Source: a virus
Lineage: Duplodnaviria; Heunggongvirae; Uroviricota; Caudoviricetes
Length of the DNA stretch: 33,668 nucleotides
IMG/VR virus record: IMGVR_UViG_2703718791_000013
Strand: one strand, 5' to 3'
The notes under the pieces were generated by a model. The model made no database searches and was not told the DNA's origin. It saw nothing but the letters and a program-made list of their open reading frames with translations. The number at the start of each line of letters is the position of its first letter. Position 1 is the first letter of the stretch. This document shows, in pieces, positions 1,433 to 32,757 of this stretch. A program made the position numbers and the translations under genes.

Positions 1433-2272
1433 TCACGCATCGCTATCCAACAGCAAATCATCTGCGCGGGTGCGATCAAACGTAGGCGTTGCTTTCACAA
1501 TAGTGCCGCCCGGCGTTGCAGTGATCGGGGCGTTAATCGACGTAACTTCAGTAAGCGAAGTTGTATCCGAAGTTTCAAACCAGCAGAATGCTTTTTCGGT
1601 ATCAGAAATCTCATTCAAAGTAATCATGTCGGCCTGTTCATTTACAACAACCGACAAATAGAGCGTAAGCCCATCAAACACTATATGCAGTGGCAGTAGA
1701 GGCTTTACGAACTGATTAAACTTTCTGAGAATTTCTTCTGTAATTGCGGACTGATCTATCGTTCCAGTAATACCCATTGTCCGGGACAGGTCGTTTATGG
1801 GAATACTGATCATTCCTCTGGAAGTCAGAAACATCTCGCCGAATGTGCCGCCGGTGGTTTCCAGTGTGCTTTCTGGAATCAGGACCGTGCCATAGGGATG
1901 ACGTTCAAAGTCCACCGGAGCATATATGGGATCCCATAAAACCGATATACCGTTAAATTCGCGATAAATTGTCTGGTTTATAGGGCGTTCAGTACCCTTA
2001 AAATGGATCTCATCAAACCGCTGTTGTAACAACATCGGAACGGAAGATGAATTCGACGTCCTGATAGTAAAAAACTGGCCAAGTTCATTTGTCCTAGTCT
2101 CCAGATCCTCCTTGCTCATGGAGAAAATAGACTTCCGGTTGGTAATTCGCTCCAACCATGGGTCAACAAAGGTGTCCATCATTGACTGAACCAAATCAGC
2201 CAATGATTTATAAAGTAATGACTTTTGCTTAGCTGATGTAAGCCGGTTATTAAACCAGGAACGCTGCATCAC
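1433..2272 (-). CDS. Baseplate/tail structural protein, 279 aa
   Basis: ORF track. Its start overlaps the stop of the upstream gene (ATGA coupling). Position in tail module downstream of sit. Confidence 0.45.
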   Translation of the reverse strand: MMQRSWFNNRLTSAKQKSLLYKSLADLVQSMMDTFVDPWLERITNRKSIFSMSKEDLETRTNELGQFFTIRTSNSSSVPMLLQQRFDEIHFKGTERPINQTIYREFNGISVLWDPIYAPVDFERHPYGTVLIPESTLETTGGTFGEMFLTSRGMISIPINDLSRTMGITGTIDQSAITEEILRKFNQFVKPLLPLHIVFDGLTLYLSVVVNEQADMITLNEISDTEKAFCWFETSDTTSLTEVTSINAPITATPGGTIVKATPTFDRTRADDLLLDSDA

Positions 2273-3702
2273 TCCTCCTCATACGAAATATTAAAGGTGG
2301 AGTTTTCTGTATCCAGATAAACGAAATCGTAAAAGCCGTTGGACTCATTCCACTCGACAAATTCCAGATAAAAGTCGCGGAAATAACCCAGCGTTTCGAT
2401 AAATGCCCAAACGTCTTTTTTCTTGATTAGGATGTACTTGCCGACACGGTTCGGATCAAAGAAAGTTGAGTCACGCCCAAATTTTGTTTCCAGTGCCGAC
2501 TTCAGCTCATCAGTCACGTTCTCAATGGTCAGGCTTGCCGATATCCGCCCAGTGATGGTGATCTTAAAGGGGAGTTTTCTGACCTCTTTATACGAGAATT
2601 TCTTGTTCAACTCATTCGGCACCTTCTTAAAGGCAGCCAGGATCATTTCTTCAAGCTCTGACTGGCTTTTGTTTGGATGCCATCCTGAAATAAATATCTT
2701 ATTGATATTCCGAACATTATAAGCACCATCTAATTTCTCTTGCTGGCCTTCGCCCCATGCCTTTACCCAGGACAGTCCCGGGATGTTACGCACCAGAAAA
2801 TACGTATAGTCCCCGCCCCATACGACCTGATCATCATAGGCAAGGTAATATTGTGCACGATTACGTGTGATCTCCGTTGTTTCGGCATCGGTACCTGCGG
2901 TTATGGGTGTCGTTGTCTTAACTGAAATCAAATTAGCTAAATTAGCCGCAGAATCGACAGGAGTCAGGTTTTGGCCAGCAACCAGGGTTATATCTCCGTT
3001 GGTGCACCATACCTTAAGTGTAATGGTCGAGCCTTCTGGCGGTATTTGCCCAATTAGCCCATCACCGAATCGAACCCCCAACTGCTCGGATGGCTTATAA
3101 AACTCAACGTAGACCTGGCTTTTACTACCGGCTAACCGGAACATAGTGCTGGAAGACCACTGCGTGGTCTTACCATCGGTCGTCACGAATACTTCCAGCT
3201 TACAGCAGACAGCAGTGAGAGCCTTTGATAACACGACTTCCAGAAATTCTTTGGCTGCCGTAACGGTATATGTCACCTCCTGGATTTCCAACTGTGCCAC
3301 TTCTACCGTACCGGTGCCGTCAACCAACCTGCATACATCCATAGTCATGTAAGGGTACTGGTCGTCAGATATTAAAGGCATGTTTTTGGGGATTACCGCT
3401 GGGGCATCTTCACTTGTGGCGGTGATCTCAATCATCCCCGATGACGGTGTTGGCTTGGTACCAACGTAACTATTCGTTTCTGCCGCTGCCAGGATAGAGG
3501 AACGCCGCGTCGCGGTCGATATAAAGCCTTCAGCCAGCGCCGCATCGGCATACTGAAAGCACCTGTAGACAATCTGGGTAATAAACAATGTCAGCATCGA
3601 GACAAATTGAGAGCCGACAAACTTCGACCAGAATGAATCTTTCTCGACAAGCTCTTCAAACTCTGCACGAATACTGTCTTTAGTCGGTGTTGTTTTACTC
3701 AT
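2269..3702 (-). CDS. Baseplate protein, 477 aa (P1 BplA-like by position)
   Basis: ORF track. Translationally coupled to both neighbours by overlapping stop/start codons. Confidence 0.45.
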   Translation of the reverse strand: MSKTTPTKDSIRAEFEELVEKDSFWSKFVGSQFVSMLTLFITQIVYRCFQYADAALAEGFISTATRRSSILAAAETNSYVGTKPTPSSGMIEITATSEDAPAVIPKNMPLISDDQYPYMTMDVCRLVDGTGTVEVAQLEIQEVTYTVTAAKEFLEVVLSKALTAVCCKLEVFVTTDGKTTQWSSSTMFRLAGSKSQVYVEFYKPSEQLGVRFGDGLIGQIPPEGSTITLKVWCTNGDITLVAGQNLTPVDSAANLANLISVKTTTPITAGTDAETTEITRNRAQYYLAYDDQVVWGGDYTYFLVRNIPGLSWVKAWGEGQQEKLDGAYNVRNINKIFISGWHPNKSQSELEEMILAAFKKVPNELNKKFSYKEVRKLPFKITITGRISASLTIENVTDELKSALETKFGRDSTFFDPNRVGKYILIKKKDVWAFIETLGYFRDFYLEFVEWNESNGFYDFVYLDTENSTFNISYEEE

Positions 3703-11176: not shown

Positions 11177-11193
11177 AATGCTCTAATAAATTT
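11177..11193 (+). promoter_or_regulatory. C1 repressor operator (AATGCTCTAATAAATTT) upstream of the immI operon
   Basis: One mismatch to the P1 C1 operator 17-mer ATTGCTCTAATAAATTT as I recall it. Same 17-mer family recurs at 12847, 27496 and 31018. Confidence 0.6.
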
Positions 11194-12846: not shown

Positions 12847-12863
12847 TTTGCTCTAATAAATTT
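12847..12863 (+). promoter_or_regulatory. C1 operator (TTTGCTCTAATAAATTT) overlapping the kilA-repL promoter
   Basis: Match to the C1 operator 17-mer, with TTGCTC usable as a -35. Confidence 0.6.
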
Positions 12864-27495: not shown

Positions 27496-27512
27496 ATTGC
27501 TCTAATAAATAT
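27496..27512 (+). promoter_or_regulatory. C1 operator (ATTGCTCTAATAAATAT) in the divergent region between the PAAR operon and uhr-hrdC-dmt
   Basis: One mismatch to the operator 17-mer; overlaps a TTGCTC -35-like hexamer. Confidence 0.55.
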
Positions 27513-27868: not shown

Positions 27869-28766
27869 GCACTGGAAAAACATTACTATTTATAAACTTT
27901 CTCGTGAGGCGGATCTGACCGACTTAGAAGATAAAAAGAAAATGATCCTTTTCACGCCATGCGGTAGTCAGGATATGGCCAAGTTCGGTTTTGTATCTCC
28001 ATTTGGTGATAATTCCGAAGTTATCGCTATGCATGGAAATGGTTTTATCCTTGTTGAAGCAAAGCGCGAAACAAAAATTCTTCCCCCGCCGGTTATCCAG
28101 CGAGCTATTCAAGAAAAAATTGAAAAACTTGAGCAAGAACAAGCGCGTAAACTGAAGAAAACAGAGAAGGACTCCCTGAAAGACGAAGTTCTGCATTCTC
28201 TTCTGCCACGGGCTTTTTCAAAGTTTTCTGTTATCCAGGCGATCTACGACGGTTCAACTAAACGTATCTATATCAATGCCAGCGCGCGGCAGGCAGAGGA
28301 TATGCTCGCGCTTATGCGTAAGTCTCTGGGTTCTCTTCCTGTTGTTCCCCTGAGTGTTGAAAATCCCATTGAATTAACGCTGACCGACTGGGTACGTGAT
28401 GGTAGTGCTCCACAGGGATTTCAAATGGGGGATGCGGCAGAACTTAAGGCAGTGCTTGAGGATGGCGGTATTGCCCGAGTGAAAAAGCAGGATTTGGGAA
28501 GCGATGAAATTTCCACACACCTGGAAGCTGGCAAGCTCGTCACTAAGTTGGCACTCGACTGGCAGAACCGCATTAAATTTACACTGGACCATAACTTCAG
28601 CCTTACCAGCGTCAAATTTGCGGATGAATTGCTTGAGCAGAACTCTGATATTGATAGTGAAGATGTAGCGCAGCGACTGGACGCAGATTTCTTCCTGTTG
28701 ACCAGTGAAATTTCGTGCCTGGTTGATGCTCTGGTAAATGCCCTTGGTGGAGAGGCTAAGCAGTGA
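27861..28766 (+). CDS. hrdC: RdgC-family recombination-associated protein, 301 aa
   Basis: ORF track (27747..28766); start [16 protein letters not shown] at 27861. Strong similarity over its length to E. coli RdgC as I recall it. Confidence 0.75.
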
Positions 28767-31027
28767 AAGAGCTGTGCTATGGATCTGTTTGCAGTGGAAT
28801 TGAAGCCGCGAGTATTGCCTGGGAACCGTTGGGTATGCGTCCGGCGTGGTTTGCTGAAATCGAGCCTTTTCCATCTGCCGTTCTTGCGCACCGCTGGCCC
28901 CATGTCGCCAACCTTGGCGACATGACAAAACTTGCCAAAAAAGTCCTGGCTGGGGAAATCGAATCCCCTGATGTGCTCGTCGGGGGAACACCTTGTCAGG
29001 CATTCAGTATCGCTGGATTACGTGGTGGGCTTGATGATGAGCGTGGCGCGCTAACTTTAAAGTATGTGGAGCTTGCAAATGCAATTGACGACAAACGGGC
29101 TGAGTCATTTCTCAAACCAGCCGTTATCGTCTGGGAAAATGTCCCAGGAGTCTTGTCATCGGCAGATAACGCCTTCGGATGTTTCCTTGCCGGATTGGCT
29201 GGAGAAGATGCGCCATTTGAACCAGGTGATCGACCTGAATCAGGAAAAAGTAACGCGTTCTGGCGGTGGGATGGCAAAACCGGTTGCCATGCTCCAAAGT
29301 GGCCACAGTGTGGTTGTATTTATGGACCGCAGCGAAAGGTGGCCTGGAGAATCCTTGATGCCCAATACTTCGGAGTGGCACAACGACGCCGACGCGTGTT
29401 TGTTGTCGCAAGTGCTCGAACAGACCTCGATCCCGCAACGGTACTTTTTGAGTTCGAAGGCGTGCGCCGGAATATTGCGCCGAGCCGAAAAAAGAAGGAA
29501 ATCGCTTCCGCCATTACTGCAAATGGCGCTGCAATCAGTGGCGAAAGCCTAAATCCATGCCTACACGCTGGCATGTCCCCCGGTATGAAATCGACGAAAG
29601 CCGTAAACGGTTTCAGGATGGCGGCATTTGGGGAATATATTGACGATGAAACCGCATCGACAGTAAAGGCAAGAGACTTTAAAGATGCCACTGACCTTGC
29701 CGTTTTTAGCAGCACAGGAGCAGGTTTTTGGTCAGAAGGGCATGGTACATTGCGGGCACGTGAGCAAGAAAGCCATGAGCATCTTGTTACATTGGCTTTT
29801 CCTGAGCGTATGAGCGGTACACAACATGCTGCAACTAAGAATACTTCACCATCTCTAATGGCTAAAAATCCAACAGCTGTTTGCTATGAAGTAAGAAACG
29901 CAGAAGTAGCTGTCCGCCGTCTTACCCCTGTCGAATGTGAAAGGCTGCAAGGTTTTCCTGATGGGCATACGTTGATCCCGACGGAAAAGCGTAAAAAAGT
30001 TAATTCAGATGAACTGGCATATCTTCGCAATCACTATCCAGATTTAAGCGAAGAAGAGGCCGCGATGCTTGCAGCTGACGGACCGCGTTACAAAGCGATC
30101 GGCAATAGTATGGCAATACCAGTAATGCGCTGGATTGGCGATCGGATTACTAAGGCCGTATGTCGGCAGAAAGAAGGAAGTGAAACAAAAGAGCGAAAAG
30201 TTAAACCAGCGGCAGAATTCGAACGGTCCATATTCAAATGGGCTGGTGGAAAATTTGGTGTTCTGGAACAAATCTTTCGCTATTTGCCAGAAGGGAAGCG
30301 CCTGATTGAACCTTTCGTTGGTGGCGGAGCTGTCTTCATGAATGCCGGATACCAGGAAAATCTGCTAAATGATGTGAATGCTGACCTGATTAACTTTTAC
30401 AAGACTCTGCAACGCGAGGCGCATTCACTTATCACTCTGGCACATCGTTTCTTCCAGGACTACAACACACAGGAAGGATACCTGGCAGTACGGAATGCGT
30501 TTAACAAACAAGTCTATGATGATTTACATCGCGCAGCGGCGTTTTTGTTCCTGAACCGACATTGTTTTAACGGATTGACGCGTTACAACCAGGCCGGTGA
30601 GTTCAATGTCGGTTATGGGAAGTATAAAACTCCGTATTTCCCATTACAGGAGATGGAAACCTTCCTCGGTGCGGAAGGGCGGTCTGAGTTTGTATGCGGT
30701 GATTTTGCAGCGGTGATTGAAGCTGCCGGAGAAGGAGATGTCATCTTTTGCGATCCGCCGTATGAACCGCTTCCAAATACAGAGGGATTCACGAACTATT
30801 CCGGTCATGACTTTAAGTTTGAAGAGCAAAAACGCCTGGTGTCTCTGTTGACGGATGCTCATCGTCGAGGTGCAAAGGTTCTCATTACTAACAGTGGCGC
30901 GCCAAACATCAGAGAGCTTTATCATGACAGTGGCTTCAGAGTGGAACCTCTTTTTGCCAGACGTTCTGTGTCTTGTAAGGGGGACACTCGAGGTGTAGCT
31001 CATGACGTTTTGGGTATATTGCTCTAA
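28763..31027 (+). CDS. dmt: Bifunctional DNA methyltransferase: N-terminal C5-cytosine MTase domain fused to a C-terminal Dam-like N6-adenine MTase domain, 754 aa
   Basis: ORF track, GTG start overlapping the hrdC stop. C5-MTase motifs [22 protein letters not shown] and ENVPGV in the N-terminal half. Dam motifs FKWAGGK and DPPY in the C-terminal half. Confidence 0.85.
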
Positions 31028-31047
31028 TAAATTTATTAGTGTAATAT
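31018..31047 (+). promoter_or_regulatory. Perfect C1 operator (ATTGCTCTAATAAATTT) within a 16-bp palindrome, coincident with a promoter (TTGCTC, 17-nt spacer, TAATAT)
   Basis: Operator is an exact consensus match and overlaps the dmt stop codon. CTAATAAATTTATTAG is its own reverse complement. The -35 and -10 hexamers are spaced by 17 nt. Confidence 0.65.
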
Positions 31048-31208
31048 CGCCTCAATGAATCGTGATTTATAGAGCGATTTAGCTGTTAGCCGCGACAGGC
31101 GCGGCGGTAAGCATGGCTGGGCCTAGTCCTCCCAGACAAACCACCGAGTTGCCAGGTTGACCATGCGCCTAAGTGGCAACCCCGAAGTGCGTTACGAGCT
31201 TCCAGTTT

Positions 31209-31234
31209 GCCCATCTTCGGGTGGGCGTTTTTTT
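31209..31234 (+). terminator. Intrinsic terminator (gcccatc-ttcg-ggtgggc then an 8-T run)
   Basis: Hairpin plus T-run about 180 nt downstream of the promoter at 31018-31047, with no ORF in between. Confidence 0.45.
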
Positions 31235-31415
31235 CAGGGTTTTCGTCATGGTTAGCGACTTTGCGGCGGTTTAGAAACTGACCATTAAAGTAAATGCAAA
31301 CGATGATCTGATGATGGTAGCGGCCTAAGAAGCCAGATGCCACGGGGTATGAGTCGTCCCCCGTCAAAAAATCGACCGCAGAGTGTCCCCGTCTGTGTAT
31401 TAGGGAACGGGGAGG

Positions 31416-31496
31416 CACAACAGGTAAGGGCGCTGGTGTGATTAACCAGATGAACGAGAAGGGGCCATCTGTTGGTCAGCGTCCTTTCCTGTTGCG
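31416..31496 (+). repeat. Long-stem hairpin element E (CACAACAGGTAAGGG ... CCTTTCCTGTTG family)
   Basis: Closing stem of about 18 bp with one mismatch. Followed by a T-rich run. Member of the five-copy family described in the findings. Confidence 0.5.
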
Positions 31497-31699
31497 TTTT
31501 CTTTTCAGCGTAACAGCGGTGCTTAACAGCACTTTGGGTACAGTTCCACGAATTTACGGGTATATCCCGTCATGCTGAAGGCGCTAATCACGCTGGAAGC
31601 CAGGGTTGTGCATCCCCTGTTACCGAATTGCAGCCAGGGCGCGGTGCGCCGAAAAGCATACGGAGGTGGAAGCCCTCGCCGGAGACGTACCCGGCAAGT

Positions 31700-31775
31700 G
31701 ATGGTGTAGCTCAGCGGTTAGAGCGGTTGACTGTTAATCAACGGGTCGATGGTTCAAATCCATCCACCATCGCCA
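31700..31775 (+). tRNA. tRNA-Asn (anticodon GTT), with encoded CCA
   Basis: Hand-folded cloverleaf: acceptor GATGGTG/CACCATC, D-stem GCTC/GAGC, anticodon stem GTTGA/TCAAC with loop CTGTTAA, T-arm GATGG-TTCAAAT-CCATC, discriminator G, CCA. Confidence 0.85.
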
Positions 31776-31777
31776 AT

Positions 31778-31853
31778 GCCGGTTTAGCTCAGTTGGTAGA
31801 GCGCCTGCCTTGTAAGCAGGATGTCAGCGGTTCGAGTCCGTTAATCGGCACCA
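31778..31853 (+). tRNA. tRNA-Thr (anticodon TGT), with encoded CCA
   Basis: Hand-folded cloverleaf: acceptor GCCGGTT/AATCGGC (one G-U), D-stem GCTC/GAGC, anticodon stem CCTGC/GCAGG with loop CTTGTAA, T-arm AGCGG-TTCGAGT-CCGTT, discriminator A, CCA. Only 2 nt after tRNA-Asn. Confidence 0.85.
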
Positions 31854-31854
31854 G

Positions 31855-31964
31855 CACAACAGGTAAGGGTATTTTGCGACGTCGGAGATCGCCGAGCTTG
31901 GCAGAGGGTTCGAATCCCTACGAAGTACCCTTACCGTTGTGATGAATGCGCAGGCTGATGCGCG
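31855..31964 (+). repeat. Long-stem hairpin element A, with an internal tRNA T-arm-like hairpin (GAGGGTTCGAATCCCT) and a 3' hairpin GCGCAGGCTGATGCGC
   Basis: Stem CACAAC-a-GGTAAGGGTA pairs perfectly with TACCCTTACC-GTTGTG. Starts 2 nt after the tRNA-Thr CCA. Confidence 0.5.
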
Positions 31965-32060
31965 AAAGACATTGCAGCTATTGCGGAAAAGAGCTGTTCG
32001 GCGGGGCAATTAAACGCCCGTGAGAGTCTGAAATAACCGCAAGCCGGAGATCAGCACCGG

Positions 32061-32142
32061 TCATCACAACACAACAGGTAAGGGCATTCTCCCTTATGGA
32101 GCTTGACTTAAATGCATCGAGTGCTCTTACCGTTGTGATGAA
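32061..32142 (+). repeat. Long-stem hairpin element B
   Basis: Outer stem TCATCACAAC/GTTGTGATGA (10 bp perfect) and inner stem GGTAAGGGCATTC/GAGTGCTCTTACC, in which the only two non-Watson-Crick positions are G-U pairs. Confidence 0.5.
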
Positions 32143-32273
32143 GTGCAGCTCTTTGAAGCAACCAGAAGATAAGCATCTGGCTTCACAACATAAACCGCAG
32201 GAACGACCAATAAACGGTAGTCCGTATGGAGAACACCCCGTTGAGGAAGAGGCCTGGCCGGAACCGTAACCGG

Positions 32274-32395
32274 CACTATAACGTTGAGAACACTGGCGTA
32301 ACGGGGTCATATCCCAATCTACGAATAAATGTTGCGTTGCAGCGTGACAACCAGTGTTCTCAACATTGTGGTGAATGCACAGGCTGATGTGCCGC
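32274..32395 (+). repeat. Long-stem hairpin element C (different stem sequence, same architecture) plus 3' hairpin GCACAGGCTGATGTGC
   Basis: 23-bp stem CACTATAACGTTGAGAACACTGG / CCAGTGTTCTCAACATTGTGGTG. Interior TAACGGGGTCATATCCCAATCTAC is shared with element D. The 3' hairpin shows compensatory changes relative to element A. Confidence 0.5.
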
Positions 32396-32552
32396 AACTA
32401 CAGTAGTGCGCGCTTTGCGGGGCTTGCTACAACCCTGTGTCGGAGTTCAGCACCGACCATCACAGTTTGATTCTCTGGCATGAGCATAACGCTGAAATAA
32501 GTCCAGTCTGGTGCGGCCCGATCACCCGCCGTTAGCTCCACGAAACGGAGCA

Positions 32553-32645
32553 CGTAACAGGTAAGAGCATTCTCCTGTAACGGGTTCATATCCCAATCTA
32601 CAGGTCCACCAGGAATGCTCTTTCCGTTGCGGTGAATGCGGCTAA
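32553..32645 (+). repeat. Long-stem hairpin element D
   Basis: Stem GGTAAGAGCATTC(tc)CTG / CAGGAATGCTCTTTCC with outer CGTAAC/GTTGCG. Interior TAACGGGTTCATATCCCAATCTAC. Confidence 0.5.
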
Positions 32646-32737
32646 GCGCACGCGGAACAGTTAAAACAATCCTCCTTAATGGTTAAACATTCCGACGTTA
32701 ATTGTTAACTGGTTAACGTCACCGGGAGGCACTCGGC

Positions 32738-32757
32738 ACCGCAATCTAATAAATATG
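32738..32757 (+). promoter_or_regulatory. Degenerate C1-operator-like site (GCAATCTAATAAATATG) upstream of tciA
   Basis: Retains the CTAATAAAT core but the 5' half diverges from the operator consensus. Confidence 0.3.

Follow-up and report, generated by a model that had tools for sequence, protein, structure and literature searches.

The 33,668-nucleotide (nt) stretch of viral DNA analyzed here (IMG/VR virus record IMGVR_UViG_2703718791_000013, Caudoviricetes; hereafter, the window) represents a P1-family phage-plasmid, and the locus of interest begins where the dmt gene ends: a C1 repressor operator and a rightward sigma-70 promoter are followed by a leader with a conserved RNA fold and an intrinsic terminator, a tRNA-Asn/tRNA-Thr pair, a structured array, the tci genes, tRNA-Ile, and ban (Table 1). 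Between positions 30900 and 31900, the window is 99.7-99.8% identical to phage P1 (AF234172, AF234173, NC_005856) and approximately 96% identical to P7. Compared with the sequenced P1 c1.100 (AF234172), it is longer by about 170 bp at 31953-32120, and the similarity ends past 32655, in the tciA region; it is a close relative of P1, mosaic in composition, and not the sequenced c1.100 strain. The best explanation of the locus, with a probability of roughly 0.8, is that it comprises the C1-controlled promoter-operator of the P1 ban operon (Obanab and P1ban) and the 5' leader of that operon.

The operator and the promoter are already known and annotated in P1, and Obanab with its promoter is a textbook element of P1 immunity. 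Both had been picked out in an earlier reading of the window from its letters alone (hereafter, the sequence-only reading), which claimed an exact C1 operator, perfectly palindromic and possibly double, that overlaps the dmt stop codon and coincides with a near-ideal promoter; apart from the quality ascribed to the promoter, this amounts to a correct rediscovery. The half-site Obana matches the C1 17-mer exactly, and the second half-site, Obanb, is inverted relative to it with an overlap of 6 bp, the two making up the divalent operator Obanab (former Op72ab), within which CTAATAAATTTATTAG (31023-31038) forms a perfect palindrome of 16 bp. The dmt open reading frame (ORF; 28763-31027) stops with TAA at 31025-31027, inside Obana, which also overlaps the -35 hexamer; together, the half-sites cover the -35 and most of the -10 hexamer, up to 31045. 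A search of the window with the 17-mer pattern recovered 5 matches with at most 3 mismatches against 0.16 expected, an excess of about 30-fold over chance (none of 100 shuffles reached 5). Further copies with a single mismatch are found at 11177-11193, 12847-12863, and 27496-27512; the last of these is the annotated Odmt (Op68), with agreeing coordinates, and the 17-mer at 12847-12863 is identical to OrepL (Op53). The promoter is rightward and annotated as P1ban, but near-ideal it is not: its hexamers match the consensus at 3 of 6 (-35) and 4 of 6 (-10) positions, and a generic sigma-70 scan did not call it. Judging from the spacing of the hexamers alone, transcription would start near A31054/A31055. 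The P1 GenBank record states that Obanab 'controls expression of ban' and lists the sigma-70 promoter P1ban with the same hexamers, along with a predicted P2ban, and the P7 record annotates the operator and promoter alike, as controlling tRNAs. Binding of C1 to Obanab is as annotated in GenBank (protein_bind, 'phage repressor C1').

P1ban drives an operon and is not the promoter of a stand-alone small RNA (sRNA) gene. The ban gene lies about 2.6 kb downstream and is controlled by C1; inactivation of the repressor induces it, although to a lesser degree than the other genes under C1 control that were tested, namely ref, ssb, dmt, and kilA (PMC4713147). Because ban is under C1 control and the P1 GenBank record annotates no other plus-strand promoter between P1ban and ban, transcription must read through the terminator in the leader. 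The first cargo of this read-through is the tRNA-Asn/tRNA-Thr pair (Rfam tRNA scores of 74.5 and 72.9 bits), and the suggestion of the sequence-only reading that read-through would place the pair under C1 control matches the annotated view in both P1 and P7. An hfq mutant over-induces trnA, ban, and dbn and under-induces the upstream hrdC and dmt (bioRxiv 2025.12.28.696737), a split that fits a separate transcription unit beginning at P1ban without being further proof of it.

Table 1. Features of the ban promoter-leader region, in window coordinates
Feature	Position	Strand	Basis
C1 operator half-site Obana (former Op72a), ATTGCTCTAATAAATTT	31018-31034	+	0 mismatches to 17-mer; protein_bind 'phage repressor C1' at AF234172 68667-68683
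C1 operator half-site Obanb (former Op72b), ATTACACTAATAAATTT	31029-31045	-	2 mismatches to 17-mer; annotated at AF234172 68678-68694, minus strand
Sigma-70 promoter P1ban (-35 TTGCTC 31019-31024, 17-nt spacer, -10 TAATAT 31042-31047)	31019-31047	+	sequence and GenBank annotation
5'-proximal leader hairpin (AAUCG 31058-62 with CGAUU 31075-79)	31058-31079	+	pairing check; part of minimum-free-energy fold
Conserved structured RNA ('dicF-upstream element', model R1), 120 nt	31081-31200	+	alignment, covariation, RNAalifold, covariance model
Closing stem	31081-86 with 31194-200	+	pairing checked base by base
H1	31090-94 with 31100-04	+	pairing checked base by base
S2	31105-08 with 31143-46	+	pairing checked base by base
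Variable hairpin	31117-21 with 31131-35	+	pairing checked base by base
H3	31148-54 with 31174-80	+	pairing checked base by base
Pseudoknot GCAUGG/CCAUGC	31111-16 with 31161-66	+	pairing checked base by base
U-rich single-stranded linker UCCAGUUU, candidate seed/Hfq-contact stretch	31201-31208	+	between conserved fold and terminator
Intrinsic terminator	31209-31234	+	terminator scan, pairing check, aligned with DicF terminator
tRNA-Asn	31700-31775	+	ARAGORN; Rfam tRNA; P1 and P7 annotation
tRNA-Thr	31778-31853	+	ARAGORN; Rfam tRNA; P1 and P7 annotation

Within the leader, P1ban lies 27 nt upstream of the conserved fold; the 5'-proximal hairpin is identical in P7 and, for that reason, contributes no covariation evidence. 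The strong terminator proposed in the sequence-only reading holds up in both the terminator scan and the pairing check: the stem GCCCATC (31209-31215), the loop TTCG, and the stem GGTGGGC (31220-31226) are followed by G and seven T (31228-31234), the stem comprising 7 bp with 5 G-C pairs (8 pairs according to the scan, where a closing U-G is included). The terminator begins 9 nt past the closing stem of the fold and occupies the slot that is held by DicF in Qin; the region labeled 'dicF-like' in GenBank (P1 68791-68892, roughly window 31142-31243) ends at this terminator. In most members of the family, a U-rich run, typically UUUGGCGG, abuts the terminator stem. An early-terminated leader RNA of about 180 nt, starting from P1ban and ending at this terminator, is plausible, the leader being homologous to the module of lambdoid prophages that runs up to and through dicF.

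The same reading had seen in this interval several GC hairpins, which are real and are parts of one conserved fold, and tiny ORFs only, which applies to the plus strand (ORFs of 24-33 aa that cross the terminator) and not to the minus strand, where an ORF of 110 aa spans 31086-31418. That the interval encodes a protein, for example, through this minus-strand ORF, might seem to gain from the presence of the ORF in the window and from the 'hypothetical protein' annotated over homologous DNA in SJ46, JL22, and several lambdoid phages. In P7, though, one-base indels in a T-run and an A-run break the minus-strand ORF up into three parts that lie in different frames and change the C-terminal frames of the three plus-strand ORFs crossing the terminator, and none of these ORFs survives there. 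Moreover, the lengths of the element fall in all residues modulo 3, and the substitutions are compensatory in RNA stems. Because of the P7 frameshifts and the variable-hairpin lengths in all three residues modulo 3, the interval is non-coding; protein coding on either strand was ruled out, and the protein explanation retains next to no probability.

The 120-nt dicF-upstream element is a four-way junction that consists of a closing stem, H1, S2 with a variable hairpin, and H3, with a pseudoknot linking the internal loop of S2 to the loop of H3. We tested this fold on a non-redundant alignment of 23 sequences, with two kinds of controls, pairing partners slid by 1-3 columns and 500 shuffles. Pairing is possible in 94.9% of the alignment cells vs 28-57% in the slid controls, and changes on both sides are observed at 12 of the 34 pairs, compared with a shuffle mean of 4.6 and no shuffle out of 500 reaching 12. 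In H3, for example, most copies have GUUGUCA/UGACAAC, P1 has GUUGCCA/UGGCAAC, and Izhakiella has GUAACCA/UGGUUAC, and the pseudoknot is GUAUGG:CCAUAC in most copies vs GCAUGG:CCAUGC in P1; relative to Qin, P1 shows compensatory replacement of U-A by C-G in both H3 and the pseudoknot. The nested helices were recovered independently by RNAalifold. The lengths of the variable hairpin among the copies span all residues modulo 3 and, therefore, exclude a shared reading frame. The fold is backed by clear covariation.

A covariance model built from the alignment (R1) finds exactly one copy per locus, that in the window at 31075-31205 with a score of 99.8 bits, P1 being part of the seed, and has no match in HK022 or D6. 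No Rfam family corresponds to the fold in P1 or Qin, and the weak RyhB, AgvB, and nuoG matches are confined to the terminator hairpin. A tRNA-like identity was considered and rejected, neither ARAGORN nor the Rfam tRNA model making a call. Full-text literature searches with sequence strings of the element returned no paper. Thus, what makes the locus moderately interesting beyond the annotated operator is a conserved, functionally unassigned RNA that we have not found described and that belongs to no Rfam family.

The distribution of the element extends well beyond P1. A BLAST search of 5,426 complete Escherichia coli genomes with 31046-31245 yielded matches in 4,428, at up to 8 places per genome, and the chromosomal matches listed cover query positions 45-139 (window 31090-31184) at 76-81% identity. 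In the K-12-type LTE800 and the O157-type 2000-3039, the two prophage loci in which the position was inspected, the match lies between ydfC and dicB, directly upstream of the true DicF (Rfam DicF scores of 76.7 and 77 bits for the Qin and O157 copies). Among lambdoid phages, mEp460, cdtI, Stx2c phages, a Salmonella phage, and an Actinobacillus phage each carry a single copy, placed downstream of the repressor gene on the early-left side. Beyond these, the element turns up in genomes of Trabulsiella, Citrobacter, Erwinia, and Izhakiella, as well as in numerous IMG/VR contigs. A scan for distant members with the 5' conserved string added one full copy among 36 new loci, and, as far as these searches go, the family looks narrow, limited to Enterobacterales and one Actinobacillus phage.

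In an alignment of the P1, P7, Qin, O157, mEp460, cdtI, Salmonella phage, and Actinobacillus phage copies, a conserved core of about 120 nt is followed by differing hairpins with a U-run: DicF in the Qin-type copies, GCCCAUCUUCGGGUGGGC in P1 and P7, and other hairpins elsewhere. A hairpin with a U-run occurs within about 135 nt in 70 of 74 unique downstream sequences; two of the four exceptions are chance motif hits, and in the other two, the terminator, by eye, apparently lies just past the scanned span. The sequences of the terminator hairpins are unrelated between family groups. In phage cdtI, the order is a near-consensus PL, leader, element, and terminator, and only then the first ORF.

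Several observations concern the flanks and the variants of the element. In the lambdoid copies, a boxA-like motif, GUGCUCUUU or GUGCUCUCUU (GUGCGCUUCC in the Qin type), is located 2-4 nt before the closing stem, and T-arm-like hairpins (e.g., GGCGGGTTCAATTCCTGCC) are found further upstream (these upstream observations come from L006 2477-2490, L007, L015, L028, L030, and L031); the motif is not evident in P1, and ARAGORN detected no tRNAs near the element in 12 lambdoid loci. Some prophage copies (L019, L043, and L105) lack the 5' strand of the closing stem, and an upstream CGCGAAAGCGC hairpin is seemingly fused to H1 via the common CGCGAAA string; they look like deletion derivatives in defective prophages. 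In phage D6 (L152 2230-2530), the P1-type terminator is preserved together with everything downstream of it; there is no match to the C1 operator, and of the conserved fold no more than a truncated remnant (…GGTAAGGCCGGGG…CACCCCCGCTGCAAC) is left. A long structured leader of a different kind stands in place of the fold.

For decades, DicF has been investigated as a 53-nt RNA. Located directly after the conserved fold and ending at an intrinsic terminator, the 3' part of the P1 leader occupies the genomic slot of DicF, yet a search of 31040-31260 with the Rfam DicF model (RF00039, gathering threshold 48 bits) produced no match at E up to 10, and the identification of the P1 3' module as DicF was rejected. 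Because this model fails to match the P1 leader, the GenBank label 'dicF-like' needs qualifying: the region is not a copy of DicF but a copy of the conserved structured RNA that accompanies DicF-type terminators. Literature searches on P1 with dicF, 'ban operon', or small RNA brought up nothing relevant. With respect to targets, pairing of the P1 3' module to ftsZ (-80 to +60), judged by duplex energy, was equaled or bettered by a fraction of 0.81-0.96 of the shuffles, by a weak method in which DicF itself, at 0.18, is marginal; ftsZ was dropped as a candidate target.

These comparisons bear directly on the possibility that the main product of P1ban is a dedicated trans-acting sRNA, a C1-repressed, Hfq-binding analogue of DicF that would act on host or phage mRNAs after induction, with the read-through into ban being secondary. 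The 3' end of the predicted transcript, a U-rich stretch, a GC hairpin, and U7, has the appropriate shape; the module sits in the same slot as DicF, behind the conserved element; the 3' modules differ among family members in the manner of exchangeable seeds; and 53-nt DicF itself arises by termination at the homologous site (PMC5069750). Conversely, the promoter is annotated as that of the ban operon, the DicF model is not matched and the ftsZ pairing is not significant, only some 8 nt lie free between the fold and the terminator, and no expression or Hfq-binding data were found. On balance, we consider a dedicated sRNA unlikely although by no means negligible. Of the C1-controlled small RNA envisaged in the sequence-only reading, what seems plausible is a terminated leader that shares the biogenesis logic of DicF; the dedicated sRNA gene gives way to the ban operon.

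Returning to the ban promoter-operator and its leader, the course of events can be pictured as follows. In a lysogen, C1 is bound, as annotated and established, to two inverted, overlapping 17-bp half-sites that span the promoter from -35 to -10, so that RNA polymerase is blocked. Upon inactivation of C1, transcription would start from near 31054, and the first 150 nt or so of the transcript would fold into the 5' hairpin and the pseudoknotted four-way junction. The polymerase would then reach the strong intrinsic terminator, where some of the transcripts would end, giving rise to an RNA of about 180 nt whose 3' end resembles the module of Hfq-binding sRNAs and which may be trimmed by RNase E, like DicF in the homologous Qin locus. 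The remaining transcripts would read through into the tRNA pair, the structured array, the tci genes, tRNA-Ile, and ban. At the homologous site, 53-nt DicF results from termination at the corresponding terminator combined with 5' processing by RNase E (PMC5069750), and a 72-nt form is produced by RNase III cleavage of read-through transcripts (PMC5069750, PMC9438474); because both forms exist, both termination and read-through are supported there.

Given that the coupling to a terminator is constant while the terminator sequence turns over freely, that the fold is promoter-proximal in P1, and that the order of elements in cdtI is the same, we favor a role for the fold in cis, at the adjacent terminator, where it might promote read-through (antitermination) or set the ratio of termination to read-through and processing. 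One specific form of such a role would be that of a processive antiterminator RNA akin to HK022 put, the nascent fold modifying the polymerase so that it passes the terminator and the Rho sites in a long untranslated leader, whereby ban in P1 or the PL operon in lambdoid phages could be expressed. Where the element lies relative to promoter and terminator is compatible with put-type action, in which read-through is promoted in cis and depends on the beta-prime zinc-binding domain. In P1 and cdtI, the element comes right after the promoter and right before the first terminator, and no gene precedes the terminator in cdtI; a terminator always follows the element; in the loci inspected, the annotated genes upstream of it include no N-type antiterminator; the boxA-like motifs precede it in the lambdoid copies; and its loops and pseudoknot are conserved in sequence, as would be expected of a surface that binds the polymerase or a host factor. 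The order of promoter, fold, and pause or terminator is likewise that of put (PMC9378689). Against this stand the lack of sequence or structural similarity to put, with the covariance model drawing a blank in HK022; the single copy in each lambdoid phage, with none on the PR side; the boxA-like motif not being evident in P1; and the production of 53-nt DicF by termination at this very site in Qin, which implies that termination is not abolished. To our knowledge, no antiterminator protein serves the P1 ban leader. We regard put-like antitermination as possible, at well under even odds, and slightly more doubtful still is the broader proposal that the fold represents an undescribed class of cis-acting transcription-control RNA that would cause RNA polymerase to read through the adjoining terminator.

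About equally likely as antitermination, and not mutually exclusive with it, is a role in processing or stability, whereby the fold, a compact, tRNA-like four-way junction, would fix the cuts made by RNase E, RNase III, or RNase P and so free a downstream sRNA from the upstream mRNA. RNase E generates the 5' end of DicF about 15 nt past the closing stem, long closing stems enclose each of the neighboring leader modules, and the same leaders also contain true tRNAs or T-arm-like hairpins. P1 matures another regulatory RNA, the c4 RNA, with RNase P, which also counts in favor of such a platform. The invariant loops and the pseudoknot, by contrast, are more elaborate than an RNase E ruler would require, the distance between the closing stem and the terminator varies from about 9 to more than 60 nt, and the element is not called by ARAGORN or by the Rfam tRNA model, so that this role, too, is one that we entertain with considerable reserve.

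A complex conserved fold followed by a variable terminator is also the classic arrangement of a riboswitch, and the fold could be conceived as the aptamer of an attenuator that senses a ligand or condition, with the terminator as the expression platform. In P1, an alternative 7-bp helix can indeed be drawn between CCCGAAG (31181-87) and CUUCGGG (31215-21), but this helix is weaker than the terminator by about 3 kcal/mol, one of its pairs varies without compensation among the P1-like copies, and no equivalent pairing is evident in the Qin-type copies. Furthermore, a long spacer of variable length separates the fold from the terminator, and there is no metabolic gene context. An attenuator of this kind appears highly improbable.

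Some of the evidence weighs against the interpretation of the locus as a C1-controlled ban promoter with a functional structured leader. The 3' module combines the lack of an RF00039 match with ftsZ pairing no better than shuffled, and the entire region from dmt to dbn is non-essential, and hence dispensable, for plaque formation (PMC10695390). We found no transcript-level data for the leader RNA of about 180 nt in the searchable literature, and its start site and the efficiency of termination are inferred. The folding z-score of the leader is just -1.5, and its single-sequence minimum-free-energy fold, at -63.5 kcal/mol, differs in structure from the phylogenetic fold, at about -44 kcal/mol (computed without the pseudoknot).

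Farther downstream, the array of hairpin modules at 31413-32660 has repeated boundaries, CACAACAGGTAAGGG occurring 4 times and CTTACCGTTGTGATGAATGC... likewise 4 times, and one of its modules carries a T-arm-like GGGTTCGAATCCC. The approximately 170 bases by which the window exceeds P1 c1.100 resemble an additional unit of this array. The ORFs plp and upl of the P1 GenBank record are located on the opposite strand over the array and may be spurious. At 32628-32743, the Rfam family STnc100 is matched below threshold (42 bits; gathering score 47), and a similar match is found in Qin (L003 3185-3325, 34 bits), between dicF and dicB. The ban leader of P1 and the dicB leader of Qin thus appear, in sequence, to share the order of conserved fold, terminator module, and STnc100-like element.

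A large fold that is a constant partner of DicF and is common to P1 and to prophages in most E. coli genomes suggests an unrecognized step of transcription or processing in these leaders. If the fold does promote read-through, RNA-only (or Nus-assisted) antitermination would have a second example that is unrelated to the first, HK022 put, and the expression of the ban operon and of the early-left operons in lambdoid phages without N, past a promoter-proximal terminator, would be accounted for. P1 offers a clean test system, with the promoter 27 nt from the fold and switchable by means of thermosensitive C1.

Among known systems, the closest is the locus itself as described in P1: the half-sites and hexamers of Op72ab/Obanab and P1ban lie at their annotated positions, and there is no difference in this part of the finding. 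The dicF locus of Qin, the ydfABC-dicF-dicB operon, presents the conserved 120-nt fold, a short linker, and a terminator hairpin with a U-run in the same order as P1, whereas the P1 terminator module is unrelated to DicF and three small genes precede the fold in Qin, in place of the immediately preceding promoter of P1; the folds of the two loci share 78-81% of their sequence. The sRNAs of the StxS type offer a parallel in that a terminator close to the promoter gives a short RNA of the Hfq type, with the operon being expressed by read-through (PMC7547250); their late promoter, however, is constitutive and subject to Q antitermination, whereas P1ban itself is repressed by C1. The nut sites of lambda (boxA and boxB) recall the lambdoid copies, with their boxA-like motif 2-4 nt before the fold, but here a 120-nt junction takes the place of the 15-nt boxB hairpin, the upstream annotation contains no N gene, and P1 shows no evident motif. 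For the putL and putR sites of HK022, homology was examined and rejected, since, once both were located in HK022, only the string GCGCGGCGG proved to be shared, and model R1 found no match. The resemblance to put is one of design: in both cases, a structured nascent RNA, compactly folded with a tertiary pairing, follows an early promoter and precedes pause or termination signals (PMC9378689), put being about 74 nt long, with two stems, and present in both early operons, and the P1-type element being about 120 nt long and present in one copy per phage.

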